Shown here: positions 17,972 through 38,049 of the stretch, piece by piece
How positions within the stretch are numbered: position 1 is the first letter of the stretch
How the letters are laid out: each line of letters starts with the position of its first letter
NCBI GenBank assembly: GCA_041666485.1
Contig: JBAYGW010000005.1
Coordinates: 3,654-67,653, forward strand
Direction: 5' to 3'
Length of the DNA: 64,000 bases
Origin: Patescibacteria group bacterium
Lineage (GTDB): Bacteria; Patescibacteriota; Patescibacteriia; UM-FILTER-42-10
Position numbers and translations under genes: made by a program
The notes under the pieces: generated by a model
Seen by the model: only the letters and a program-made list of their open reading frames with translations
Database searches by the model: none
What the model was told of the DNA's origin: nothing

Positions 17972-19129
17972 ATGCCGGCAATTAAAAAAGCAAAAATAGG
18001 AAAACGCTATTCAAAAATGGCTGTGCTGTTTCTCGGCGTGGCTTTGGTTGCGGTCGTCGCTATTGTATATGTATCGCTCGCCAAAACAGTAATCACGATT
18101 ACGCCCAGTCCGGAAGCGGTCAGTATTTCCTTTGATTTACCTTTAACCGCCGGAACAAATCAGTCTGAAAGCACGTCATATTCCCTAACAGGGCGGTTAG
18201 TGGAAAAACAGATCAAGGAAACCAAGACATTTACCAATGTAACCAGTCAAAGCAAAGTGCAGGGCAAAGCAGAAGGCGTGGTTACAATCTACAATAATTA
18301 TGGAAGCAACCAGCCGTTAACCGCAACCACCCGTCTGCTTTCGGAAGACAATGTTCTGTTCCGAACCAAAGAAACAGTGACGGTCCCGGCAGGAGGACAG
18401 GTTGAGGTTGCTGTGGAAGCGGATCAGGCTAGCGAGGCGGGCAATATCGGTCCTTCCCGATTTACGATCGTCGCGCTTTGGAAAGGACTGCAGGACAAAA
18501 TTTATGCCGAAAGCTCGGACGCAATGTCTAACGGCCTCCGTGACGTAACAGTCGCAACGCTGGAAAATATCAATGACGCCAAGGAACAATTTGCGATTGA
18601 ATTGAAGGAAAAAGCGACGGAAGAATTATCCCGGGAAGTGGCAATTAATAATTCATCGGAAAAAATTCTGCCACAGGCAGTTACTTACCAAATCTTAGAG
18701 GAAGATGCCGATGTTGAACCAGATACCGAAGTGAATTCATTTGATATAACCAGTAAAATAAATGTCATCGCCGCGGTATTTGATGAAACCGAATTATTCA
18801 ACCACACCAAACAACTGCTCTCTGAGAGAGTACCGGCAAACAAAGAACTGGCCGGCACGGAAATTAGCCTTTTACAATACGAAATAAAATCTTACGACCT
18901 GGAAAATCAAACTGCTGTTTTGGATGTATCGCTAAACGGAACTACCTATGTTAAATTGACCAGTCCGATTTTTGACCGCGATAATCTTTTAAACCGTGAT
19001 AAGCAGGAAATCAAAACATATTTTCTGGATTTTCCGGAAATTCAAAATGTGGATGTGAAATTTTCTCCGTTTTGGGTGTTCCGCTCCCCTTCCTTGAAAG
19101 ATCATATTGAAATCGTAATTACCAAATAG
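17972..19129 (+). CDS. Hypothetical membrane-anchored protein
   Basis: 385 aa. N-terminal TM ('VLFLGVALVAVVAIVYVSLA'). Extracytoplasmic T/S/N-rich region. Confidence 0.4.
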   Translation: MPAIKKAKIGKRYSKMAVLFLGVALVAVVAIVYVSLAKTVITITPSPEAVSISFDLPLTAGTNQSESTSYSLTGRLVEKQIKETKTFTNVTSQSKVQGKAEGVVTIYNNYGSNQPLTATTRLLSEDNVLFRTKETVTVPAGGQVEVAVEADQASEAGNIGPSRFTIVALWKGLQDKIYAESSDAMSNGLRDVTVATLENINDAKEQFAIELKEKATEELSREVAINNSSEKILPQAVTYQILEEDADVEPDTEVNSFDITSKINVIAAVFDETELFNHTKQLLSERVPANKELAGTEISLLQYEIKSYDLENQTAVLDVSLNGTTYVKLTSPIFDRDNLLNRDKQEIKTYFLDFPEIQNVDVKFSPFWVFRSPSLKDHIEIVITK

Positions 19130-19336
19130 CTCTGTCACATATTTGACAATCAGCCTGTTTTGGCATATCTTTAATCTACTTTCAAGCGATTGAGAAAGCC
19201 GACCAACTTTCTTCTCTCTAATCTGGAGAGGTGGATAAAACCGCTAAGCTTGCAAGCAAATCTATATAAAAGCGCCTAATTCTTGTATTATTACACTTAG
19301 GAATATGGGTGGAACCGTCCCGCAAAATCCGGGACC

Positions 19337-19364
19337 CCAAACACAATTAGTTGTTTGGTTTTTT
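19337..19364 (+). terminator. Terminator-like hairpin CCAAACA-N8-TGTTTGG + TTTTTT, at the 3' end of a candidate sRNA
   Basis: AT-rich stem with a T6 run. No CDS ends nearby, so it probably terminates a non-coding transcript starting near 19178. Confidence 0.4.
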
Positions 19365-19378
19365 AATTTTTAAATCTT

Positions 19379-19867
19379 ATGAAAGAATTATCACATTTCT
19401 GCGTAACTGACGTTTTTCTCGAAAATGAATTTGAGGAAGTTCTGATGTTGAAACGCAGTAAAAAGAAAAAGATCTTGCCAAATTTATACAATGGCCTGGG
19501 AGGTAAGATTGATAATGGTGAAACACCACTTCAGGCAATCCAAAGAGAAGCAAAGGAAGAAGCCGGAGTTATTTCAATGGAAAATTTACAGTACAGAGCG
19601 AATCTGTCTGTAAAAGATAAATTCGGATTTTGGCAGATATATATTTTTTACGGCAATGTCTACAAGAAAAATATAATTATTAAGGAAGTTGACGAAGGGA
19701 CATTGGAGTGGATACCAAAGAATAAATTACTTGACTATCAACTTGTCCCCGATTTGAATAACTGGTTACCAAAGATGTTCGCAAATCCAGAGGCCTTCCA
19801 ATTTGTAAAAATTGAATATGATGATAAATATAATTTAAAAAAAATAATGATTACACCATTAACTTAA
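19379..19867 (+). CDS. NUDIX hydrolase
   Basis: Nudix box 'GGKIDNGETPLQAIQREAKEEAGV' (Gx5Ex7REUxEExGU). Confidence 0.75.
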   Translation: MKELSHFCVTDVFLENEFEEVLMLKRSKKKKILPNLYNGLGGKIDNGETPLQAIQREAKEEAGVISMENLQYRANLSVKDKFGFWQIYIFYGNVYKKNIIIKEVDEGTLEWIPKNKLLDYQLVPDLNNWLPKMFANPEAFQFVKIEYDDKYNLKKIMITPLT

Positions 19868-19872
19868 ATAAT

Positions 19873-21672
19873 ATGAAAAAAGAAACACCAATTGAGCTTA
19901 AACGCCATTCGCTCGCGCATGTCATGGCGGCGGCCGTTGCCAATCTGTACCCCGGAGCTAAATTCGGCGTCGGTCCGATAATTGATAACGGGTTTTATTA
20001 TGATATTGATCTCCCAGAACAGCTTTCGCCTGATGATCTGAAAAAAATTGAAAAAGAAATGATCCGGCTGATTAATCAGAAACTCGCTTTTGAGCTGGAA
20101 GAGCTTCCGATCAAAAAAGCGATTGAATTTTTTACCAAACAGAAACAGGATTATAAAATTGAGCTACTTAATGATCTGCAACAGAAAGGCACCACCCGGA
20201 TTTCAGAGGAAGAAGCACAGGATCTGGATCCGAAGCAGAAAGACAAAGTAACAATTTATAAAACCGGCGATTTCACTGATTTATGCCGCGGCCCGCATGT
20301 TGATACTACAGAGCAACTGCAGAATTGCGCATTTTCTTTGGATAGAATCGCCGGAGCCTATTGGCGCGGTGATGAGAAGAATAAACAACTGACCAGAATT
20401 TACGGTTTGGCATTCAACAGCAAAAAAGAACTGTCGGAGTATAAACACAATCTGGAACTGGCCAAAGAAAGAGACCACCGAAAAATCGGCAAAGAGCTGG
20501 GGCTTTTCCATATTTCACCGGAAGTAGGCGCGGGATTACCGCTTTGGACCCCGAAGGGCACAACCATCCGTAGGGAGCTGGAAAAATTCCTGACTGAACT
20601 GCAGGAAAAGGACGGCTATGACCAGGTGATTACTCCGCATATCGGCAAAATTGATCTATATAAAACATCCGGCCACTGGCAGAATTACCGTGAAAACATC
20701 TATTCCCCGATGAATATTGACGGGGAAGAATTTGTGCTGAAGCCGATGAACTGCCCGCACCACATTCATATCTATTCCTCTCAAATGCGCAGTTATCGGG
20801 ATCTGCCGATTCGTCTTTCCGAATTCGGCACTGTTTACCGCTATGAACAATCCGGCGAACTGACCGGCCTGGTCCGGGCGCGCGGGTTTACGATTGATGA
20901 TGCTCATATCTTCTGCCGAACTGATCAGATTAAAGAAGAATTTTCCAATGTGATTGAACTGATCAAAACAGTTTTCTCCACCCTGAAATTCAAAGACTTT
21001 GAAGCACGCATCGGACTCCGGGATCCGAAATCCAGCAAATATGTCGGATCGGATGAGCTGTGGGAACGCGCTGAAAAAGAGATTGAAGAAGTGGTTAAAT
21101 CAAAGAAAGTTAAATACATCAAACAGGAGGGTGAAGCCGCTTTCTACGGACCGAAGCTGGATTTCGTAGTCAGAGACGTGATCAATCGTGAATGGCAACT
21201 GGGAACGATCCAGGTGGATTATAACCTGCCTGAGCGGTTTAAACTGGTATACAAAGGTGCGGACGATAAAGACCACCGTCCGGTGATGATCCACCGCGCG
21301 CCTTTCGGTTCCATGGAGCGGTTTGTCGGAATCATGATTGAACATTTCGGCGGAGCTTTCCCGACCTGGCTCTCCCCTACGCAAGTTTATGTCATTCCGG
21401 TCGGCAAAGACCATTTCAAATTCTCAGAGGAATTGGGCAAATCGCTGAAAGCACAGGGTATCCGTACGGAAGTTGATCTGAACCGGGAAACGGTCGGCTA
21501 TAAAATCCGTAAAGCGGAAAAACTGAAAGTATCCTACATGCTGGTAATCGGCGACAAGGAAGTAAAAGATAAAGATCTGACTGTCCGCGCCAGAGGATCC
21601 AAAGATACCAAGCAGATGAAACAGGAAGAATTTGTGGAAAAGATCCAGAAAGAAATTAAGGAAAGGAAATAA
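19873..21672 (+). CDS. thrS: Threonyl-tRNA synthetase (lacks long N-terminal editing extension)
   Basis: Class II motifs. 'HRKIGKELGLF'. Anticodon-binding C-terminus. Confidence 0.93.
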   Translation: MKKETPIELKRHSLAHVMAAAVANLYPGAKFGVGPIIDNGFYYDIDLPEQLSPDDLKKIEKEMIRLINQKLAFELEELPIKKAIEFFTKQKQDYKIELLNDLQQKGTTRISEEEAQDLDPKQKDKVTIYKTGDFTDLCRGPHVDTTEQLQNCAFSLDRIAGAYWRGDEKNKQLTRIYGLAFNSKKELSEYKHNLELAKERDHRKIGKELGLFHISPEVGAGLPLWTPKGTTIRRELEKFLTELQEKDGYDQVITPHIGKIDLYKTSGHWQNYRENIYSPMNIDGEEFVLKPMNCPHHIHIYSSQMRSYRDLPIRLSEFGTVYRYEQSGELTGLVRARGFTIDDAHIFCRTDQIKEEFSNVIELIKTVFSTLKFKDFEARIGLRDPKSSKYVGSDELWERAEKEIEEVVKSKKVKYIKQEGEAAFYGPKLDFVVRDVINREWQLGTIQVDYNLPERFKLVYKGADDKDHRPVMIHRAPFGSMERFVGIMIEHFGGAFPTWLSPTQVYVIPVGKDHFKFSEELGKSLKAQGIRTEVDLNRETVGYKIRKAEKLKVSYMLVIGDKEVKDKDLTVRARGSKDTKQMKQEEFVEKIQKEIKERK

Positions 21673-24051: not shown

Positions 24052-24570
24052 TTAATGATTGAAAAGTGAGAACAGGCGGTATGCCGCGAGAGCTGTGGTC
24101 AGAACACCGACCATGTTCCCAGTGAAAATGAGCAGATACGCGCGCGGCAGTTTCAGAAGCCGCGCTGTGATGACGGATGCCGTGACCGCGTACGGCAGAA
24201 GCGGGATGGCGACCAGGATGAAGATCACGACGCTCGGGTACCGGCTGTTCACGATGTAGCTTGTGAGCATGTCGCGGAAACGTTGCAGACCGGCGTTGAT
24301 TGCGAAAAGCCGCAGCTCCATCTGGTGTGAACGGCCATTGGCGCCGTTCTGCCGGAGGACGCGTCTGGTGAGCGCAATCGTCTGCTCGCCCAGCCACAGC
24401 AGCATCTCGGGGAAGTAGAACATCAGCGACATCCCGATGCTCGAGCCGATGAGCAGTGTGAGGAACCCCTTCCAGAAGCCATACCCGGCCAGAAAGACAG
24501 CAAACGCCGTCACCTCTTCCTGCCAGATGGCCGACCAAACGAAGAATAGCTCGTCCAACAAGAAAACCAC
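24052..24570 (-). CDS. Hypothetical membrane protein encoded in a GC-rich island (possibly DedA/VTT-like)
   Basis: 172 aa, 4-5 TM segments. Codon usage and GC content differ sharply from the neighbours. The family call is weak. Confidence 0.35.
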   Translation of the reverse strand: MVFLLDELFFVWSAIWQEEVTAFAVFLAGYGFWKGFLTLLIGSSIGMSLMFYFPEMLLWLGEQTIALTRRVLRQNGANGRSHQMELRLFAINAGLQRFRDMLTSYIVNSRYPSVVIFILVAIPLLPYAVTASVITARLLKLPRAYLLIFTGNMVGVLTTALAAYRLFSLFNH

Positions 24571-24692
24571 GTGTTGACCTCCTGTCAGGGTGAATCCAAA
24601 GGCAGGAACGAAGTATCATAATTTAACATAAACTTATTTGTAGGTCAACGTTTAAAAACAGTAACCATTGCGAGGAGTCCCGTTAGTAATCT

Positions 24693-24826: not shown

Positions 24827-25705
24827 ATGAAAAAACTAATCGTAATCCTAGGTCCAACCGCATCCGGAAAAACCGGCATGTCTTTAGCATTGGCAAAAAA
24901 ATTTAAAGGCTTCGTTATCTCCGCAGACTCGCGTCAGATTTACCGCGGAATGGATATCGGCACCGGAAAATTGACCAGGGATAAATGGCAAGGAATCACC
25001 CACCGCATGATTGATATTATTGATCCCGATCAGGAATACAGTCTGGCGCAGTTTCAAAAAACAGTATTTGCCATTATTAATGAAGAGCAAAACTTATTGC
25101 CGATCATGGTCGGCGGAACCGGACTTTATATTCAGTCGATCGTGGATAATCTGGATATTCCCAAAGGAGGAATGGATAAAGTTTTGCGCAAGGAATTGGA
25201 TGCAAAAACACCTGAGGAACTTTTCAAAATGCTGATTCAGCTGGACTATAAATCCGCCCAGGAAATAGATATTAATAATAAAAGAAGGCTGATCCGGGCG
25301 ATAGAAGTTTTCAAAGTTTCCGGCGAAAAGTATTCGGAAAAAAAAGGAAAAAACAGTCCCCTAGTGCAGGCACTGCAAATCGGCATTAAATTATCCAGAG
25401 AAGAAATGTACCGGCGCATTGACCGGCGGGTGGATGAAATGATCCAAGCAGGCCTTTTGGATGAAGTAAAAACGCTTGGTGAAAAGTTCGGCTTTGATAT
25501 CCCCTCCATGTCCGCCATCGGCTACCAACAACTGTCCGCGTATTTTAAAAAGGAAATTTCATTAGCTGAAGCGGTGGCCCAAATCAAGAACGACTCACAT
25601 CATTATGCCAAAAGGCAGATGACCTGGTTTAAGCGCGACCATCGGATCAAATGGATAACATCCGTGGATGAAGCGGAAGAGCTGGTTGCTGATTTTCTGG
25701 GGTAA
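24827..25705 (+). CDS. miaA: tRNA dimethylallyltransferase
   Basis: P-loop 'GPTASGKT'. IPPT family layout. 292 aa. Confidence 0.9.
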   Translation: MKKLIVILGPTASGKTGMSLALAKKFKGFVISADSRQIYRGMDIGTGKLTRDKWQGITHRMIDIIDPDQEYSLAQFQKTVFAIINEEQNLLPIMVGGTGLYIQSIVDNLDIPKGGMDKVLRKELDAKTPEELFKMLIQLDYKSAQEIDINNKRRLIRAIEVFKVSGEKYSEKKGKNSPLVQALQIGIKLSREEMYRRIDRRVDEMIQAGLLDEVKTLGEKFGFDIPSMSAIGYQQLSAYFKKEISLAEAVAQIKNDSHHYAKRQMTWFKRDHRIKWITSVDEAEELVADFLG

Positions 25706-25710
25706 TTGCC
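25657..25710. repeat. Direct repeat copy 1 (3' end of miaA) of a ~41-54 bp duplication
   Basis: 'gaagcggaagagctggttgctgattttctggggtaattgcc' recurs at 26190-26230 with 3 mismatches. Confidence 0.7.
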
Positions 25711-25874
25711 TAATCTTCTTCATATAACAAAACGGTGATAAGATACAAGATATGCGATATGTTCGCATAATAACAAGTTTGCGTACAGACACACCTTATC
25801 CTACAATGCTTACCCTCATTCCCCAATTACCAGTTACTAGTTACTAACTACTTAATCAATATAATACTGCCATT

Positions 25875-26165
25875 ATGAAATTTGACGAGCCGCCAAAACC
25901 AGAAGGATTCAGCAAATATCAGATGGATATCATGCACGAAATTGAGCATGGCCGAGCTTCAAGCGTTGAAGAAGCGGTTAAAATAGTGGAACTGGCCATG
26001 TTTGAGCAACGCATAGAACAATTTTCCGAAGACGATTTAAAACGCGATGCGGACGGATCCTGGCATACTTTTGAACAAAAAATCAAGGCGGTTTTCCCCG
26101 AACTACCGGAAGATCGGCAAAGAGCTATGAAAGCGGCCGTCACCATGCATTTATGCGGAATGTGA
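25875..26165 (+). CDS. Small acidic hypothetical protein, flanked by the miaA-3' direct repeats
   Basis: 96-aa ORF. No motif recognised. Confidence 0.35.
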   Translation: MKFDEPPKPEGFSKYQMDIMHEIEHGRASSVEEAVKIVELAMFEQRIEQFSEDDLKRDADGSWHTFEQKIKAVFPELPEDRQRAMKAAVTMHLCGM

Positions 26166-26176
26166 TTTAGCGGCTG

Positions 26177-26230
26177 TTAAATCGGTGCAAGAAGCGGAAG
26201 AGCTGGTTGCTGGTTTTTTGGGGTAATTCC
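26177..26230. repeat. Direct repeat copy 2: an in-frame remnant of the miaA 3' end ('..EAEELVAGFLG*')
   Basis: Matches 25657-25710. Would encode the same last 10 aa as MiaA with one substitution. Confidence 0.7.
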
Positions 26231-26266
26231 CCTAGTGTCAAAGCATATGTGTAGCTACGGGAAGGC

Positions 26267-26374
26267 ATCAGTACCCATTGCGAATCCTGATTCGCCAGCT
26301 GGCGAACGAAGGGTGAAGCAACCCCGATATATCAGCACCCATTGCGAACCTTGTGCAACAAGGTGTGGCAATCC
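26267..26374. repeat. Two tandem ~45-58-nt units with conserved flanks (TCAGYACCCATTGCGAAYC ... GGTGNRGCAAYCCC) and different perfect palindromes at the core
   Basis: Unit 1 core is TTCGCCAGCTGGCGAA (26290-26305). Unit 2 core is CCTTGTgcaACAAGG (26348-26362). Confidence 0.5.
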
Positions 26375-26561
26375 CGTTCCTTTTGACTTAAGTGTATCCA
26401 TTCCGGGGGTCTTCTCCTGTCTTTTGCTTTCATCCTTATGTGTGGCCCCGGTCCCAGATTTTGGGGTTTTCTCGTTGTTCTTCTTAATAAAACAAAATGG
26501 TGGTAAAATACAGGATATAAAGAAAATAAGTGTTTATGAATTAATCTAATTATATTTTCAC

Positions 26562-27632
26562 ATGAAAAATGGTAAGCATAAGAATAATGTAGTAGAGCTT
26601 TTTTCAGGTTGCGGTGGTTTTTCTTGTGGTTTTGAAAAAGCGGGATTTAATATTTTTTTAGGAGTCGATAATGATCAACCATCTTTAGATACATTTAAAA
26701 AAAATCATCAAAATTCAGTAGTCATGAATTTAGATTTATCACGAAATAATGCAATCGATAAAATTATTAAAGTTACTAATGGAACGAAGGTTGATATTAT
26801 AATTGCTGGTCCTCCATGCCAGGGTTTCTCTTTAACTGGAACCAGACTAAAAGATGATAAAAGGAATAAATTATTTAATACCGTTTTTGATTTAGCAGAA
26901 CATTTAAAACCAAAAGCAATCATAATAGAAAACGTTCCAGGCCTCGAAACACTTTATGGAGGTGTAGCAAAAAAAAGGATTTTAGAAAGATATGATGAGT
27001 TAGGTTATGAAGTAACTAGCCATGTACTTTTTGCACCAGATTTTGGTGTACCACAGATTAGAAAAAGAATTGTTTTTGTAGGAATATTAAAAAAAATTGG
27101 TAAAAAATTCATTTTTTCAAAACCATTGCTTAATAAAGACAATTATGTAAATTGTGAAGAGGCAATTGGTGACTTGCCAAAACGAGAAAAAGAGTTTGGG
27201 AATGAAGTTGATAAGTATATAAAGGCACCAAAAACTAAATACCAAAAAGAGATGAGGGGAAAAACAATAAAGTTATTTAATCACGTAAGCACAAAACATT
27301 CACCCCATGTTATTGATGTTATCTCCCAAGTACCGGAAGGTGGCAACTACAAAAACTTACCGAAAGGTGTTGGAGAAACAAGAAAATTCAACGAGGCATG
27401 GACACGTTATCATAGTAAAAAACCATCAAAAACAATAGATACGGGTCATAGAAATCATTTTCATTACAAATATAATCGTGTGCCTACTGTTAGAGAAAAC
27501 GCACGTTTACAGTCTTTTCCTGATCATTTTATATTCACTGGAAGCAAAACTCAACAATATAGGCAGGTTGGTAACGCTGTACCTCCACTATTAGCATATT
27601 CTATTGCAAAAGAATTATTGAAGTATATTTAA
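26562..27632 (+). CDS. DNA (cytosine-5)-methyltransferase, copy 1
   Basis: Motif I 'LFSGCGGFSCGF', motif IV 'GPPCQGFS', motif VI 'ENVPGL', motif X 'GNAVPP'. Very AT-rich gene. Confidence 0.9.
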   Translation: MKNGKHKNNVVELFSGCGGFSCGFEKAGFNIFLGVDNDQPSLDTFKKNHQNSVVMNLDLSRNNAIDKIIKVTNGTKVDIIIAGPPCQGFSLTGTRLKDDKRNKLFNTVFDLAEHLKPKAIIIENVPGLETLYGGVAKKRILERYDELGYEVTSHVLFAPDFGVPQIRKRIVFVGILKKIGKKFIFSKPLLNKDNYVNCEEAIGDLPKREKEFGNEVDKYIKAPKTKYQKEMRGKTIKLFNHVSTKHSPHVIDVISQVPEGGNYKNLPKGVGETRKFNEAWTRYHSKKPSKTIDTGHRNHFHYKYNRVPTVRENARLQSFPDHFIFTGSKTQQYRQVGNAVPPLLAYSIAKELLKYI

Positions 27633-27636
27633 CTCT

Positions 27637-28866
27637 ATGTCTAGAAAAAGAAAAGTTAATGTAATAGACTTATTTGCAGGTTGCGGTGGATTAACTGATG
27701 GTTTTGAGTATAAAAATAATTACAATATCTTAGCTACTGTTGAATGGGATAAACAATGCTGCAATACGTTGCAAAATAGATTATCTAAAAAATGGGGTTA
27801 TAAAAATGCGGCAGATTTGGTATTAAACTTTGATATTCAAAGAATAAAAGAATTACTAACTGGTTGGAAAAATGATGTAAAATACGGAAATAATGTCGGC
27901 CTTAAAAAACTAATAGGGAAAAATAAAGTTGATGTAATAGTAGGCGGACCACCATGTCAGGCATACTCTGTGGCCGGAAGAATTAGAGATAAAAATGGGA
28001 TGCACACAGACTATAGGAATTTTCTTTTTGAAAGTTACATTGCTTTAGTTAAAGAATTTAAACCTAAATTCTTTATTTTTGAAAACGTGCCTGGAATATT
28101 GAGTGCAAAACCTGGTGGAATCTCAATTATTGACAGAATAAGAGAATCATTTGGTAAAATAGGATACACCATTGCTGATGACTTAAGAAAAATAGCTATT
28201 GTTGACAGCTCTGATTTTGGTGTTCCTCAAATTAGAAAAAGAGTCATTATTTTAGGTGTAAACAAAAACGTTTATCGTAATAATGCCAACGAAATTATAA
28301 GGGATTTCTACTTCAATATTTTACCTTCCTTGAAATTTAAAAATAAGATGACTGTTAAAGATGCCTTGAATGACTTACCTAAATTCTTTCCATTGAATGA
28401 AAATAAACATAATAATCAATCCCACTCAATTTCCAAAAAATCAAATATATATAATCACATACCTAGATTTCATAGTAAAAGAGATATTGAAATATTTAAA
28501 ATACTTACTAATGATATTAAAAAAAGAGAAAATAAGTATACTTCTATTGCAGAGCTAAAAAAATTGTACTTCAAATTTACTGGAAAAAATTCTAATATCC
28601 ACAAATATCATGTTTTAAAAGAAGATGAACCAAGTAACACTATACCTGCTCACTTATATAAAGACGGTTTAAGACATATTCACCCTGACCCAAAACAAGC
28701 AAGAAGTATAACAGTAAGGGAGGCAGCTAGATTACAAAGCTTTGAAGATAATTTTGAATTTTTAGGAACCATGGGAGATCAATATAAAATGATTGGAAAT
28801 GCCGTCCCCCCAAAATTAGCATATGCTATTTCTGAAGCATTGTATAATTTAATTGAAAAATATTAA
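27637..28866 (+). CDS. DNA (cytosine-5)-methyltransferase, copy 2 (larger target-recognition region)
   Basis: Motif I 'LFAGCGGLTDGF', motif IV 'GGPPCQAYS', motif VI 'ENVPGIL', motif X 'GNAVPP'. Confidence 0.9.
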   Translation: MSRKRKVNVIDLFAGCGGLTDGFEYKNNYNILATVEWDKQCCNTLQNRLSKKWGYKNAADLVLNFDIQRIKELLTGWKNDVKYGNNVGLKKLIGKNKVDVIVGGPPCQAYSVAGRIRDKNGMHTDYRNFLFESYIALVKEFKPKFFIFENVPGILSAKPGGISIIDRIRESFGKIGYTIADDLRKIAIVDSSDFGVPQIRKRVIILGVNKNVYRNNANEIIRDFYFNILPSLKFKNKMTVKDALNDLPKFFPLNENKHNNQSHSISKKSNIYNHIPRFHSKRDIEIFKILTNDIKKRENKYTSIAELKKLYFKFTGKNSNIHKYHVLKEDEPSNTIPAHLYKDGLRHIHPDPKQARSITVREAARLQSFEDNFEFLGTMGDQYKMIGNAVPPKLAYAISEALYNLIEKY

Positions 28867-28883
28867 GCAATAATTTATATTTT

Positions 28884-29870
28884 ATGCCAAAATTTTACAT
28901 AAAAAAATTAACCCCCCAAGAACTTGGATATCGTTCAGGTAGACCAAAAGGTGGCGGTAGATATTTTTATGTTTCAAAGGATTGTTTAGAATTTTTCCCC
29001 CCTTTATCTGAAAACATACTCAATGATTCAGTTTTAATACCTATAATTCCTCCATTCTCGAATAATAAAGTATATAGTAATTTTGTTTATCATAATGATA
29101 AACATGCAATTGAAAACGGTACGAGGGATGAATATAGACTCTATCTTAATAAACAGATTGATCCTAATGGTGAATATTTTAGCATTGACGACATTGTTGT
29201 TTTTGAAAAACAAGAAGAAAAAATTGATCAAGAAATTATTCCAACATATTTTTTAAACAGATTTTTAGCGAGTGCACCAGAATACAATATCTTAAACAAT
29301 ATAATTGAAAAATCTGAAATCAGAGGTGGACATGCACTATATGATGGTGAGCTTTCTGTTTCAACACAAACAACTAAATTTTCTGCAGATAATCGAGTAA
29401 TAATTCCTGAAGAAGTTGAAAAAGAAGTAAAAGATAAACTTACTGAAAACGAAGAAGAAATGGGTGCACACTTATTTAATTCAATAAGTTTTAGGGATTT
29501 TGTCTTAAATAGTTATGGTTATAAATGTGCAATCACAAATAAATCAATCACATGGAAAAATCTTAATAATTTAGAGGCTGCACACATTAAACCGAAATCA
29601 CACAGAGGAAGTTTTCTGCCATGTAATGGAATAGCCTTGTCAAGAGATATGCACTGGGCATTTGATAAAGGATTTATCTCCATAAACGACGATTATACAG
29701 TTTTAGTACACAAGGACGTGAAAGAAACAATGCTTAAAGAAATAGACGGAAAGAAAATTAACTTACCAATAGAAGATTTCTTTAAACCAAACAAAGAGTA
29801 TCTTAAACATCACAGAGAAAATGTATTCGGTCTATTTCATCATTCAGGATCGTTAAGGTCAATTAATTAA
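28884..29870 (+). CDS. Putative restriction endonuclease, HNH (His-Me finger) family, cognate to the adjacent methyltransferases
   Basis: C-terminal 'YKCAITN...LEAAHIKPKSH...NGIALSRDMHWAFDKG' HNH signature. N-terminal region resembles a DNA-binding module. Operonic with the two MTases. Confidence 0.6.
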   Translation: MPKFYIKKLTPQELGYRSGRPKGGGRYFYVSKDCLEFFPPLSENILNDSVLIPIIPPFSNNKVYSNFVYHNDKHAIENGTRDEYRLYLNKQIDPNGEYFSIDDIVVFEKQEEKIDQEIIPTYFLNRFLASAPEYNILNNIIEKSEIRGGHALYDGELSVSTQTTKFSADNRVIIPEEVEKEVKDKLTENEEEMGAHLFNSISFRDFVLNSYGYKCAITNKSITWKNLNNLEAAHIKPKSHRGSFLPCNGIALSRDMHWAFDKGFISINDDYTVLVHKDVKETMLKEIDGKKINLPIEDFFKPNKEYLKHHRENVFGLFHHSGSLRSIN

Positions 29871-30122
29871 ATCAACAAATGTATTTTTAGATTAGGCCGA
29901 ACAGATGCGGATAAATACCCATTACAATACCACTCATGACAAAAATACAAAAAATTGTGGAATATTTCAAAATAAGCAATATGTTCAAATAACAGCAAGT
30001 TATCAGACATAATTTTTATATAATTTTGTTAATTTCCCACGTAACTTGTAGAATTCAGAAATAATGAATAAAGTTTCATTATCATTCAACCAAAACAATA
30101 TTCACAAATAACCATAGATACT

Positions 30123-31406
30123 ATGAAAACACGTTTTCAAACAATGTCTATAAATCGTCTCTTTAAGTATCGTGAAAGAATCGATTTAGAACCGTCTTTT
30201 CAGCGTGAGAAAGTTTGGTCCAGTGACAAGCAACAACACTTCCTAGACACACTTCTAAAAGGTTGGGGAGTGCCAAAATTATACCTTCAACTAGATGAAA
30301 GCCCATCGGGTAAAAGAAACTACATCTGTATTGATGGGAAGCAACGCCTTACATCAGTTTTTTCTTTTTTAGAAAATCGTATACCTCTTAGTAAAAAATA
30401 CTCAGGTGAATTTGGTGGCAAATATTATCTTGATTTACCAGATAAAATTCAGAATAAATTTGATGACTATAAACTTCATATCGAGGAAGTAACTGATCCG
30501 GAAGAAAAGGAAATGAGCGAGCTTTTTAAGCGGTTGCAGCTTGGCTCACCACTCAACTCGGGAGAGAAGCTAATGGCTATAGTTGGAGATATGCACAATC
30601 TTGTAAAGAAATATTCCGTCCATCCATTTTTTAAAAAGAAAGTGGCATTACCGAATACTAGATATGCTCATTTTACTGTATGTGCTCAGGTTTGTTGCTT
30701 AGAGACTGTTGGGATTACAGATATCCCACTTCGCAAATTAGAATTGTTTTTTTCGAGCCACGAGGATTTTCGTAGCAGTGGTTTTGAACTTAAAACAAAG
30801 ATACAAAAAATTAAAGAAGTGCTAGATTATCTCAACAAAATGTTCGCCGCAGAATCACCTGACCTTCGCAATAGAGCAAGTGTAGTATCTATTTATCTAC
30901 TTGTATCTGATTTGATAGATAAGGGAAATATTAAAGGGAAGGAAAATAAATTAAGACGGTTCTTTGCAACATTTACAAAAGAATTACGAAATGAAATTGA
31001 AAAAGGTGTTGGGGCAAAGGACGCACAATTTATAAACTATCAGTCAGCGATTATTCAGGGTGCTGATGATCAAAAGTCTATCAAACTTAGGAGAGAAATA
31101 TTATTGAATAAACTTTATAGTTACGATCCTTTTTTCTATCGAATTATGCATCCACAACTTTCTCCAATTGAAAAATTTAGTAATTTATATGGGAACGTGG
31201 AAGATCGTCTCGGAAACTCGCAGCGAGTAGATGATTGGCTGGTAAGTAAAAAACCGAGAATCAAAACCGTGACTTGTCGAGGTAAAAAAGAGACGTTTAT
31301 AACACATATTAGACATTGCATCCACCATAATAAACATGGTAAATACACAAAATTAGATCTTCGTAATGCAACAAACTTATTAAATCAAATAGGCACTCCA
31401 ACCTAA
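30123..31406 (+). CDS. DUF262 (ParB/Srx-like) domain protein with a His-rich C-terminus. GmrSD-like candidate type IV restriction enzyme.
   Basis: DUF262 blocks 'EPSFQREKVWS', 'LLKGWGVPKLYL', 'IDGKQRLTS'. C-terminal 'HIRHCIHHNKHG...NATNLL' may be a degenerate His-Me finger. Confidence 0.6.
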   Translation: MKTRFQTMSINRLFKYRERIDLEPSFQREKVWSSDKQQHFLDTLLKGWGVPKLYLQLDESPSGKRNYICIDGKQRLTSVFSFLENRIPLSKKYSGEFGGKYYLDLPDKIQNKFDDYKLHIEEVTDPEEKEMSELFKRLQLGSPLNSGEKLMAIVGDMHNLVKKYSVHPFFKKKVALPNTRYAHFTVCAQVCCLETVGITDIPLRKLELFFSSHEDFRSSGFELKTKIQKIKEVLDYLNKMFAAESPDLRNRASVVSIYLLVSDLIDKGNIKGKENKLRRFFATFTKELRNEIEKGVGAKDAQFINYQSAIIQGADDQKSIKLRREILLNKLYSYDPFFYRIMHPQLSPIEKFSNLYGNVEDRLGNSQRVDDWLVSKKPRIKTVTCRGKKETFITHIRHCIHHNKHGKYTKLDLRNATNLLNQIGTPT

Positions 31407-31423
31407 ATACTATGATTAATATA

Positions 31424-31463
31424 CAAAAAAACAAGCCCTGAAATATTCAGAGCCTGTTTTGTT
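31424..31463. terminator. Bidirectional terminator between the convergent DUF262 and carbamoyltransferase genes
   Basis: A7 - GCCCTGAA-atat-TTCAGAGC (one mismatch) - TTTTGTT. Confidence 0.5.
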
Positions 31464-31477
31464 ATATGATTATTATC

Positions 31478-32413
31478 CTATTTCCCCATCAGCCACAGAA
31501 TGATGGCTTTTTGAATATGCATCCTGTTTTCCGCCTGATCGAATATTATGGAGTTTGGATGATCAATAGCGTCACGGGATATCTCATAACCCACGTGGCA
31601 GGGCATACAGTGCATAATTCCGGCCTTGGGGCTGTATTTATCCACGATTCCGGCATTGAGCTGGAACGGCTTGAATTCTTCAATTCTCTTGTCATATTCC
31701 GCTTTAAACTCCGGTTTGACCTTGCCGTCTTCGAAAAATTCCATATCCATCCAGGTGTCCGTATGCACGTAATCCGTATCTTTCATTGCCTCTTCAATAT
31801 CCACTGTTTTATGCACCTTCCCTGTTGCTTCTGCCATTTGGTTCAGCTCTTCATCAACACTGATTTCGTGTACTTTCGGTGCTGCCAGATAGATATCTAT
31901 TCCCAGTTTGGTGCAGACCAGCTTCAAAGTATTGCTGACGTTGTTTTCGATTCCGAGCCAGGTTACTTTTTTAATATTTTCAATTCCCCCGCTGTGTTCC
32001 ACCATCGTCAAAAGATCCCCGAGTGACTGGCATGGATGGTATTTTTCGGAGCAGGCGTCGATTACCGGAATTTTATTGAGGGATGCGGCAATATTGACAT
32101 CATTAAAAGATTTTGCCCGGAACATTAATACGTCGCCGAAACGCATTACGGCCTGAATCTCGTCTTTGTAATCAGTCAGGGCAAATTGCGATGTCCGACT
32201 GTCCAGAAATATTGCATGTCCGCCCAGCTGAGTCATGCCGGCTTCAAAAGAAAGCCTGGTGCGGGTGGATGTCTTCTGGAAAAGCATGATTAATGTTTTG
32301 TTTTTCAAAACATCTCCGTATCTTTCCGGATTAGCTTTGATCTCCTGCGCTTTGCGGATAATCTCCAGAATATCCTCTTTGGAATAGTCTTTTAGTGTAA
32401 GACAGTGTTTCAT
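31478..32413 (-). CDS. Ornithine-carbamoyltransferase-like transcarbamylase (specificity uncertain)
   Basis: 'STRTR', 'HPCQ' and C-terminal 'HCMPCH' (OTCase HCLP-like). Distinct from the bona fide pyrB at 38506. Confidence 0.65.
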   Translation of the reverse strand: MKHCLTLKDYSKEDILEIIRKAQEIKANPERYGDVLKNKTLIMLFQKTSTRTRLSFEAGMTQLGGHAIFLDSRTSQFALTDYKDEIQAVMRFGDVLMFRAKSFNDVNIAASLNKIPVIDACSEKYHPCQSLGDLLTMVEHSGGIENIKKVTWLGIENNVSNTLKLVCTKLGIDIYLAAPKVHEISVDEELNQMAEATGKVHKTVDIEEAMKDTDYVHTDTWMDMEFFEDGKVKPEFKAEYDKRIEEFKPFQLNAGIVDKYSPKAGIMHCMPCHVGYEISRDAIDHPNSIIFDQAENRMHIQKAIILWLMGK

Positions 32414-32420
32414 TGTTTTC

Positions 32421-32488
32421 GTAATTAGTAATTAGTTATTGGTAATTGGTAAGAAGTAATTCGTAATTGGTAAATTATAATTGGTAAT
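32421..32488. repeat. Array of degenerate GTAATTGGTAA-type short tandem repeats (about 6 units) in the promoter region of the carbamoyltransferase gene
   Basis: 'gtaattagtaattagttattggtaattggtaagaagtaattcgtaattggtaaattataattggtaa'. Confidence 0.6.
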
Positions 32489-37086: not shown

Positions 37087-37137
37087 CAATTACCAATTAC
37101 ATATTACCAGTTACTAATTACAAATTCCCAATTACTT
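37087..37137. repeat. TTACCAATTAC-type short repeat array (reverse orientation of the 32421 array), overlapping the pyrD 3' end
   Basis: 'caattaccaattacatattaccagttactaattacaaattcccaattactta'. Confidence 0.55.
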
Positions 37138-38049
37138 ATTATGCGCCAACCCGATTATCTCACTAATAGAATCAAATCCTTCCGCCTCCATATATTCTTT
37201 AATCTCATCACAAATCAGCCTGAACACTTCCGCACCGCGGTAATATACTGCCGTTCCTACCTGAACCGCTGTTGCTCCCAGCATCATCATTTCAATCGCG
37301 TCTCTGCCGGTCGTGACCCCGCCGATACCGATCACCGGAATTTTTACCGACTGGTATATGTCAGAAACGCACCGCACCGCAATCGGCCGGAGCGCCGGAC
37401 CGGTAACACCCCCCATGCCAAAATGCAGAATCGGTTTTTTGGCATAGATATCCAGGTGAATCCCGGGTCCCATGGAATTAACCGCGGAGATTGCGTCCGC
37501 ACCACCCGCTTCCGCCGCCTTGGCTACTTCACCGATCGGCTGGCTTTCCGGCGATACTTTGATAAATAAAGGTAACTTAGTTTTCTCTCTGATTCTTCTG
37601 GTAATTTCCTCGGTGGCCTTCGGCGTTCCCTGTCCCGCCATCGTTCCGTAACCCGGAGTATGCGGGCAGGATAAAACCGCTTCCACTGCTGAAAATTCGT
37701 CGGTCAGAAAATTCTCCGCCATATAGGCGAACTCATCCGCATCTTTACCGATAATACTGGCAATCACCGGCGCTTTTAATTCTTTCAGATTAATAAACTC
37801 CGCTTTGGCTTTTTCCAGACCGGGGTTGGAGTAACCGACCGCATTCATAAAACCGCCCTCAATCGCGTGCATGTTCGGCGCATCATGACCTTTGCGTTCT
37901 TCCCGGCTGATGGATTTTATCACACAACCGCCGGCACCGTTTTGGATAACGTATTTCAAAGAATCCCGGATTACCCCAAGAATTCCGGACGCCAGGATCG
38001 TCGGATTAGCAAAATCAATTCCCGCTAATTTTATGGAAACATCTGGCAT
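37132..38049 (-). CDS. pyrD: Dihydroorotate dehydrogenase 1B catalytic subunit
   Basis: FMN-binding TIM-barrel motifs ('SAVNSMG', 'IGIGGV'). Paired with pyrK. Confidence 0.9.
   Translation of the reverse strand: MPDVSIKLAGIDFANPTILASGILGVIRDSLKYVIQNGAGGCVIKSISREERKGHDAPNMHAIEGGFMNAVGYSNPGLEKAKAEFINLKELKAPVIASIIGKDADEFAYMAENFLTDEFSAVEAVLSCPHTPGYGTMAGQGTPKATEEITRRIREKTKLPLFIKVSPESQPIGEVAKAAEAGGADAISAVNSMGPGIHLDIYAKKPILHFGMGGVTGPALRPIAVRCVSDIYQSVKIPVIGIGGVTTGRDAIEMMMLGATAVQVGTAVYYRGAEVFRLICDEIKEYMEAEGFDSISEIIGLAHNK

Follow-up and report, generated by a model that had tools for sequence, protein, structure and literature searches.

The DNA analysed here is a 64,000-nucleotide stretch of contig JBAYGW010000005.1 from a Patescibacteria group bacterium (metagenome-assembled genome GCA_041666485.1). 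It is referred to below as the window, and the subject is a defence island lodged in it between miaA and pyrB. Four co-oriented open reading frames (ORFs) lie in this gap, exactly where an initial annotation made from the sequence alone had placed them. They encode two C5-cytosine DNA methyltransferases (M1 and M2), an HNH nuclease (the R protein) and a protein with a DUF262 domain (Table 1). For the last two, NCBI entries on a 96-kb contig are 100% identical. The reading that we regard as probable is that a foreign block of about 4.9 kb in the miaA-pyrB gap carries two independent defence units, namely a restriction-modification (R-M) operon of Type IIS-like layout formed by M1, M2 and R, and a stand-alone DUF262 gene. 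The locus is a genuine defence island, though of a fairly ordinary kind.

The island (26519-31427) has a GC content of 31.2%, compared with 43.3% for the remaining window, in agreement with the composition far below background that had been described for it. Individual values are 31.7% for M1, 29.4% for M2, 30.3% for the R gene and 35.1% for the DUF262 gene, the last having been estimated earlier at about 37%. Segments of the same size elsewhere in the window average 43.3% with a standard deviation (sd) of 1.4 and a minimum of 39.6%, which places the island about nine sd lower. The closest syntenic relative found (locus L065) keeps miaB-orf172-miaA and pyrB-pyrF, with amino-acid identities of 80% for MiaB and 81% for PyrF, those of MiaA and PyrB being listed in Table 1. 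Its gap measures 2.2 kb; all four genes are missing from it, and three small, unrelated ORFs occupy it instead. Since this gap differs and lacks all four genes, the locus is a hotspot of variable content where this lineage acquired the AT-rich block, in keeping with the island described in the initial annotation; the cassette looks recently acquired. When MiaA was looked up by exact match, the hits were confined to this contig and a fragment of 1.3 kb. Of the features that define a genomic island, two were found here, an unusual composition and a syntenic relative without the block; flanking repeats and an integrase or transposase were not. As previously stated, there is no such mobility gene: neither the ORF list nor a Pfam scan revealed an integrase or a transposase in the interval from 25.7 to 31.5 kb.

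Table 1. Genes, protein domains and other features at the miaA-pyrB gap (window coordinates; aa, amino acids).
Feature	Coordinates	Strand	Remarks
miaA (tRNA isopentenyltransferase), native left flank	24827-25705	+	PF01715, E 2.8e-76; 68% aa identity to the syntenic L065 gene
Repeat copy 1 (miaA 3' end and 48 nt downstream)	25660-25753	+	Matches 26181-26231 and 26479-26518
orf96, small protein (96 aa) inside the repeat pair	25875-26165	+	Lineage-conserved; no Pfam or PHROG match
Repeat copy 2, two pieces (26181-26231 and 26479-26518)	26181-26518	+	Split by a 247-bp, 50%-GC insert (26232-26478)
M1, C5-cytosine DNA methyltransferase, 356 aa	26562-27632	+	PF00145, E 3e-71; PADLOC MTase_II, E 8.5e-114
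M2, C5-cytosine DNA methyltransferase, 409 aa, different target-recognition domain	27637-28866	+	PF00145, E 9e-64; PADLOC MTase_II, E 7.8e-126
R gene (whole)	28884-29870	+	
R protein, N-terminal B3-like DNA-binding pseudobarrel (predicted), aa 1-155	28884-29348	+	
R protein, acidic linker, aa ~156-200	29349-29483	+	pLDDT 55-76 (B3 domain mostly 84-94); length varies among homologues
R protein, C-terminal HNH nuclease domain (McrA/TagI/VcaM4I type)	29484-29870	+	
Spacer between R-M cassette and DUF262 gene	29871-30122		252 bp, 26% GC, promoter-like hexamers; no vsr remnant
DUF262 gene (whole)	30123-31406	+	
DUF262 protein, ParB-DUF262 NTPase-like and helical (ParBDB-like) domain, aa 1-340	30123-31142	+	
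DUF262 protein, C-terminal 88-aa Cys/His domain	31143-31406	+	Conserved motif, 19 family members
Hairpin, bidirectional, intrinsic-terminator-like	31428-31460		15 pairs, A-run before and T-run after; between the convergent DUF262 gene and pyrB
pyrB, aspartate carbamoyltransferase-like, native right flank	31478-32413	-	PF00185 and PF02729; 88% aa identity to the syntenic L065 gene

The methyltransferase pair and its nuclease

Both methyltransferases are complete, as had been claimed, with motifs I (FxGxGG), IV (PPCQ), VI (ENV), VIII (QxRKR), IX (TVRE) and X (GNAV) present in each. The PADLOC run recommended by the initial annotation assigned both to MTase_II and matched the DUF262 protein to NsnA. 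M1 and M2 share 33% identity overall and 27% in the target-recognition domain; such unlike domains fit an arrangement in which one enzyme would modify each strand of an asymmetric site. Compared with their orthologues, the target-recognition domains are 46-70% (M1) and 49-59% (M2) identical, about as high as the catalytic core, a degree of conservation compatible with a specificity shared across the cassette family.

The three genes are closely packed, with intergenic gaps of 4 nt (M1-M2) and 17 nt (M2-R). A scan of one genome per species gave 55 loci with relatives of the R protein, one of which (L011) is the same Sphingobacterium contig as the separately fetched L003, leaving 54 others. In 45 of these 54, a full-length R homologue directly adjoins orthologues of both methyltransferases (identities of 51-68% for M1 and of 53-62% for M2). 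The other nine comprise a locus that ends inside the cassette (L038) and eight with only a truncated or partial R relative, none of which has both methyltransferases. Three separately looked-up loci carry the same cassette, often with a vsr gene nearby; on the metagenome contig L001, identity is 74% for M1 and 64% for M2. Genes are ordered either M1-M2-(B3small)-R or R-M1-M2, and the hosts include Bacteroidota, Bacillota, Cyanobacteria, Omnitrophota, Gastranaerophilales and Pseudomonadota. Because synteny is strict across phyla, M1, M2 and R can be treated as one R-M unit, as the initial annotation had done, and the three genes make up a single conserved, horizontally mobile cassette. The methyltransferase and nuclease genes are separate and co-inherited, as in a Type II R-M system.

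Related cassettes show additional features. About 12 of them contain an optional stand-alone, 145-aa B3-like protein (PF20731, RE_NgoFVII_C) between M2 and R, located at 7553-7990 in L003, at 7563-7997 in L004 and in about ten other loci; it is absent here. In the Sphingobacterium sp. contig L003 (1-16987), the cassette sits within a dense defence island that also holds AbiH, Abi_2, RhuM, Vsr, a McrBC-like pair, Mrr_cat and two further HNH_2 proteins.

The nuclease associated with the methyltransferase pair is not always the same. On the Lactococcus lactis plasmid p275D (L062, NZ_CP016702, 5548-9181), a C-protein gene and orthologues of M1 and M2 (54% each) accompany a convergent gene for a 349-aa restriction enzyme with a PLD domain. 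The C-terminal DNA-binding part of this enzyme is 29% identical (E 8e-15) to the 145-aa RE_NgoFVII_C protein. Since the M1/M2 pair serves a PLD-type nuclease on this plasmid, the nuclease module has been swapped, and on this comparison the modification module is conserved and its putative nuclease exchanged. In addition, two cassettes with BpuJI_N/NOV_C nucleases (L153 and L154) begin with a methyltransferase about 51% identical to M1, the correspondence being limited to this one enzyme of the pair.

The R protein, at 328 aa, is full length relative to at least 120 homologues. Its C-terminal domain matches HNH_2 (PF13391, E 2.8e-9). In an alignment of 32 homologues, H234, N248 and H257 of the HNH motif and every other invariant residue are kept, and the beta-beta-alpha core, catalytic His, Asn and metal-binding His of an HNH nuclease are all present. 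An AlphaFold model built on 32 homologues (pLDDT 82.9, pTM 0.74) contains two domains joined by an acidic linker of lower confidence, the N-terminal one being predicted to form the seven-stranded pseudobarrel of B3-like domains. Weak matches to B3 families were obtained for 9 of 28 R homologues (seven to BfiI_DBD and two to EcoRII-N), and an N-domain profile search against the PDB gave only a hit to BfiI (E 0.34) over 20 residues. The assignment to B3 therefore rests on the fold, because the sequence-level link to solved B3 domains is too weak.

Searched against 1.84 billion representatives, the N-domain profile retrieved only 228 clusters (at 50% identity), and the same architecture of about 330 aa is shared by most of them. 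In other members, the same B3 subtype is fused to AAA_5 in a layout like that of McrB/LlaJI.R1 (P0327, P0373), to a GHKL ATPase (P0312, P0335) or to a helix-turn-helix domain and HNH_2 (P0324, P0330), and in one member a duplicated B3 domain of this subtype is combined with HNH_2 (P0258). A route to the recognition site through LlaJI/HgaI was tried by tblastn with the B3-AAA_5 relative P0327; it gave only AAA-domain matches and hence no specificity.

Separate recognition and cleavage domains, as in Type IIS enzymes, are found in the R protein, and this two-domain layout of DNA-binding and nuclease parts agrees with the Type IIS reading in the initial annotation. In the HNH subfamily of modification-dependent enzymes, a weakly specific cutter is placed by a reader domain, and EcoWI-type fusions of reader and HNH cut N4-N10 from the element that is read (PMC7461809). 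In BfiI and NgoAVII, a B3-like domain is joined to the nuclease through an acidic linker (PMC4267654). A Type IIS-like mechanism is the most economical because the HNH cutter is positioned by a reader in relatives and because BfiI and NgoAVII have the B3-linker-nuclease layout. We infer that the B3 domain would bind the unmethylated site and that the tethered HNH domain would cut nearby. No example of a B3-like reader and McrA-type HNH as the nuclease of a two-methyltransferase system was found in the literature searched or in the PDB, REBASE lying outside this search.

The DUF262 gene

The DUF262 protein (427 aa) contains a GmrSD_N/DUF262 domain (PF03235) at aa 12-131, with an E-value of 7e-16 and 59.3 bits against a cut-off of 33.2, and keeps the QR..W and DGKQR motifs. 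Its best PADLOC match is NsnA (E 5.9e-26, aa 6-325), and in a fold search it matches BrxU and SspE. The C-terminal domain carries the motif C-x(5-9)-E-[TS]-x-x-x-H-[IV]-R-x-x-x-H-H-x-x-H, of which C385, E390, H395, R397 and the HH..H cluster recur in 19 clusters, and its predicted topology is hairpin-helix. The initial annotation had labelled this protein a Type IV enzyme of DUF262/His-Me type. The DUF262 part of that label is confirmed; a His-Me domain, that is DUF1524/HNH, was not detected by Pfam, NCBIfam, PDB profile search, hhalign or fold search. A profile search with the last 88 residues gave no PDB or Pfam match, and hhalign of this tail against the C-termini of distant relatives, which have a PF01844 HNH domain there, returned a probability of 0.24%. 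With no detectable DUF1524/HNH domain, the protein fails a defining feature of GmrSD. Filing under Menshen fails as well, since neither an NsnB ABC-ATPase nor an NsnC effector lies beside the gene in the window or in eight other contexts of the family.

No constant partner of the family was found across these nine contexts. In four of them (the window, L151/L152, L153 and L154), a Type II R-M cassette is immediately followed by the DUF262 gene. In L153 (99-5243) and L154 (2088-7284), homologues with 69% and 52% identity follow a series composed of a 5-methylcytosine (m5C) methyltransferase, a BpuJI_N/NOV_C nuclease, a second m5C methyltransferase and Vsr. The nearest homologue of the DUF262 protein is the 69% one in L153, and the nearest homologues of the R-M genes are in L001 (69-74%), in a different arrangement; the two units have therefore been shuffled independently. 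Furthermore, the conserved cassette does not include the DUF262 gene. By its distribution, it is a separate solo gene outside the R-M cassette, and we conclude that its predicted product is an autonomous, defence-associated DNA sensor.

Boundaries and flanks of the island

To the right of the island, a convergent pyrB-pyrF-pyrE-pyrC block on the reverse strand begins at 31478. The initial annotation had bounded the island by a miaA repeat on one side and a bidirectional terminator on the other. Both the repeat and the 15-pair hairpin are real, but the repeats bracket orf96 and not the island. The second copy lies about 520 bp downstream of the first, and the repeat is longer than the footprint previously described. 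Identity is 88% between 25660-25710 and 26181-26231 and 85% between 25714-25753 and 26479-26518. A 427-bp segment with orf96, rather than the AT-rich genes, is enclosed, and no att sites or direct repeats bracketing the island were found. Homologues of orf96 with 56-84% identity occur in other Patescibacteria assemblies (the 84% one, P0389, on a 284-kb contig), and distant matches carry the name Candidatus Buchananbacteria. Since orf96 is conserved in related Patescibacteria, it is not mobile-element cargo. We read the miaA repeat as a rearrangement scar at a recombination-prone gap, not as island att sites.

The insert that splits the second repeat copy (26232-26478) contains two 18-nt internal direct repeats (CAGTACCCATTGCGAA-like), and a similar 15-mer is present at 24659-24673. 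The insert was considered as an RNA or mobile element and this was rejected, with folding z-scores of 0.44 and 0.18, no Rfam match and no other copy in the window. No tRNA or Rfam family that might serve as an integration anchor was found anywhere in the 64-kb window, and the window likewise contains no vsr gene or vsr remnant.

Several further observations concern the surroundings. A 57%-GC block within the 43%-GC genome (24000-24650) holds a 172-aa hydrophobic ORF on the reverse strand (24052-24570), which has no Pfam or PHROG match and whose syntenic counterpart in L065 is 41% identical. Intergenic tandem heptamers, (GTAATTA)n or the complement CAATTAC, occur at 32421-32488, upstream of the pyrB operon, and at 37087-37141, after 36927. 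An inverted, 47-nt partial copy of the array lies upstream of orf96 (25823-25869). These arrays may be promoter or operator elements of the genome. A 385-aa ORF with a weak Baseplate_J match (17972-19129) adjoins the gene for DNA polymerase III alpha, in a stretch that falls to 35-39% GC (18750-20000).

Proposed mechanism, alternatives and relation to known systems

In the mechanism that we propose, the first unit (26562-29870) would be a three-gene operon encoding a Type II R-M system of Type IIS-like layout. M1 and M2 would each methylate cytosine at C5 on one strand of an asymmetric site. Unmethylated copies of this site would be read by the B3-like domain of R, and the McrA-type HNH domain tethered to it would cut the DNA a short distance away; dimerisation or two sites would probably be needed for cutting. 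The acidic linker may hold back the nuclease, as proposed for BfiI and NgoAVII. The second unit (30123-31406) would stand alone, probably with its own promoter, and its product would combine a ParB-DUF262 NTPase-like sensor with a helical DNA-binding domain and the Cys/His domain. This protein would act alone in DNA-sensing defence, its C-terminal domain serving as an effector or a metal-binding module. If it is modification-dependent, it would have to tolerate the m5C marks of the neighbouring methyltransferases.

Several points weigh against this picture. The B3 assignment comes from a predicted structure, and the N-domain of R scores below the Pfam gathering threshold (17.1-18.6 bits for BfiI_DBD against a cut-off of 25). 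An asymmetric recognition site and cleavage some distance from it are predictions. In EcoRII and UbaLAI, the B3 domain is an allosteric effector and not the sole specificity element, and a Type IIE-like mode of this kind is possible for R. The absence of the island from relatives is drawn from one syntenic genome (L065). As to the second unit, the effector step predicted for the DUF262 protein is a guess, and the recurrence of its family after R-M cassettes in four of nine contexts leaves room for functional coupling.

Such coupling is taken furthest by the explanation that all four genes form one system, with the DUF262 protein as an auxiliary sensor or motor, or as another nuclease, beside the R-M cassette, for example against phages with hypermodified cytosines, with m5C read as 'self'. 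The family is downstream of and co-oriented with R-M cassettes in the four contexts named, three of which have two m5C methyltransferases, and the identity of about 51% between M1 and the leading methyltransferase in L153 and L154 points in the same direction. Nevertheless, we hold a single system to be unlikely, as the other five contexts have no R-M neighbour, a DUF262 gene occurs near an R relative in only 2 of 57 comparison loci (at 25-27% identity), and the partner R-M types vary (HNH, BpuJI_N/NOV_C, MvaI/BcnI). The 252-bp spacer with promoter-like sites between R and the DUF262 gene also speaks for separate units. A second explanation concerning this gene is that it is a non-functional remnant of Menshen (NsnABC) or GmrSD that lost its effector. 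NsnA is indeed the best PADLOC match, no nuclease domain is detectable in the protein, and distant relatives end in a PF01844 HNH domain instead. A decayed gene is nonetheless quite improbable: the full architecture including the Cys/His motif is kept at 35-70% identity in no fewer than 19 clusters of diverse environmental origin, the protein preserves its NTPase motifs, and neither NsnB nor NsnC lies beside any of the nine contexts. The conserved full-length architecture, the intact motifs and the absence of NsnB and NsnC therefore indicate purifying selection on a solo gene.

For the R protein, it may be asked whether it is a modification-dependent Type IV nuclease of the McrA/TagI/VcaM4I kind, with M1 and M2 as orphan or anti-restriction enzymes. 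Its HNH domain belongs to the PF13391 subfamily, whose solved members (VcaM4I, TagI, EcoKMcrA and ScoMcrA) are all modification-dependent, and its best NCBIfam match, below the cut-off, is a family of phosphorothioate-dependent enzymes. Its reader, though, is a B3-like pseudobarrel and not an SRA, EVE, SBD or NEco domain. Moreover, if R attacked m5C, inheriting it together with two m5C methyltransferases would be lethal, but synteny of the three genes holds in 45 of 54 loci, and we give a Type IV role very little credence. Finally, the low GC content might reflect local compositional noise or gene-specific bias instead of horizontal acquisition, given that other stretches of the window fall to 35-39% GC (for example 19.0-20.0 kb). 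This is scarcely credible for a block about nine sd below segments of its own size, whose genes are absent from the syntenic relative L065 and have their closest homologues in unrelated phyla.

Two independent units on an acquired island thus remain the preferred reading. A more ambitious reading, which we consider doubtful, would make the DUF262-ParBDB-Cys/His protein a new single-gene defence effector with a hitherto undescribed nuclease or metal-binding module, functionally tied to cytosine-methylating R-M systems, for example hitting hypermodified cytosines and sparing m5C, and the M1/M2 pair a fixed 'modification chassis' for HNH, PLD and BpuJI-N/NOV_C nucleases. If R is a site-specific Type IIS enzyme, it would represent a new domain combination among restriction enzymes and may give a new specificity as a tool. 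The M1/M2 pair, combined with HNH in the window and with PLD on the Lactococcus plasmid, provides a clean natural case of nuclease-module swapping. In addition, the island documents layered, horizontally acquired defence in a Patescibacteria lineage with a reduced genome. The current understanding of R-M systems is not overturned.

Among known systems, the B3 enzymes of BfiI type differ from the R protein in having a PLD instead of an HNH nuclease and in their domain order, which is reversed relative to the N-terminal B3 domain here; no sequence similarity is detectable beyond a 19-residue patch. TagI, VcaM4I, EcoKMcrA and EcoWI share the layout of a PF13391 HNH domain with a reader. Their readers recognise m5C, 5-hydroxymethylcytosine or phosphorothioate and they lack a cognate methyltransferase, whereas the reader of R is B3-like and two methyltransferases are inherited together with it. 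LlaJI, which recognises GACGC, likewise has two m5C methyltransferases, together with an R1 subunit composed of B3 and a McrB-like AAA+ domain and a McrC-like R2 subunit. Compared by description, the present cassette has no AAA+ motor and no McrC subunit, and cutting is assigned to the fused HNH domain. NgoAVII and CglI, with the site GCCGC, use an R-protein composed of PLD and B3 domains and a helicase-like partner. As described in PMC4267653, they have a single methyltransferase. In contrast, the cassette has two methyltransferases and neither a PLD domain nor a helicase/ATPase subunit. The DUF262 protein shares DUF262 with GmrSD, BrxU and SspE, and in place of DUF1524/HNH it has the 88-aa Cys/His domain without a database match. 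Menshen NsnA is a sensor composed of ParB-DUF262 and ParBDB (PMC12065111); the DUF262 protein, with no NsnB ATPase or NsnC effector in its nine contexts, has the same two-domain core and extends it by a further conserved C-terminal domain.

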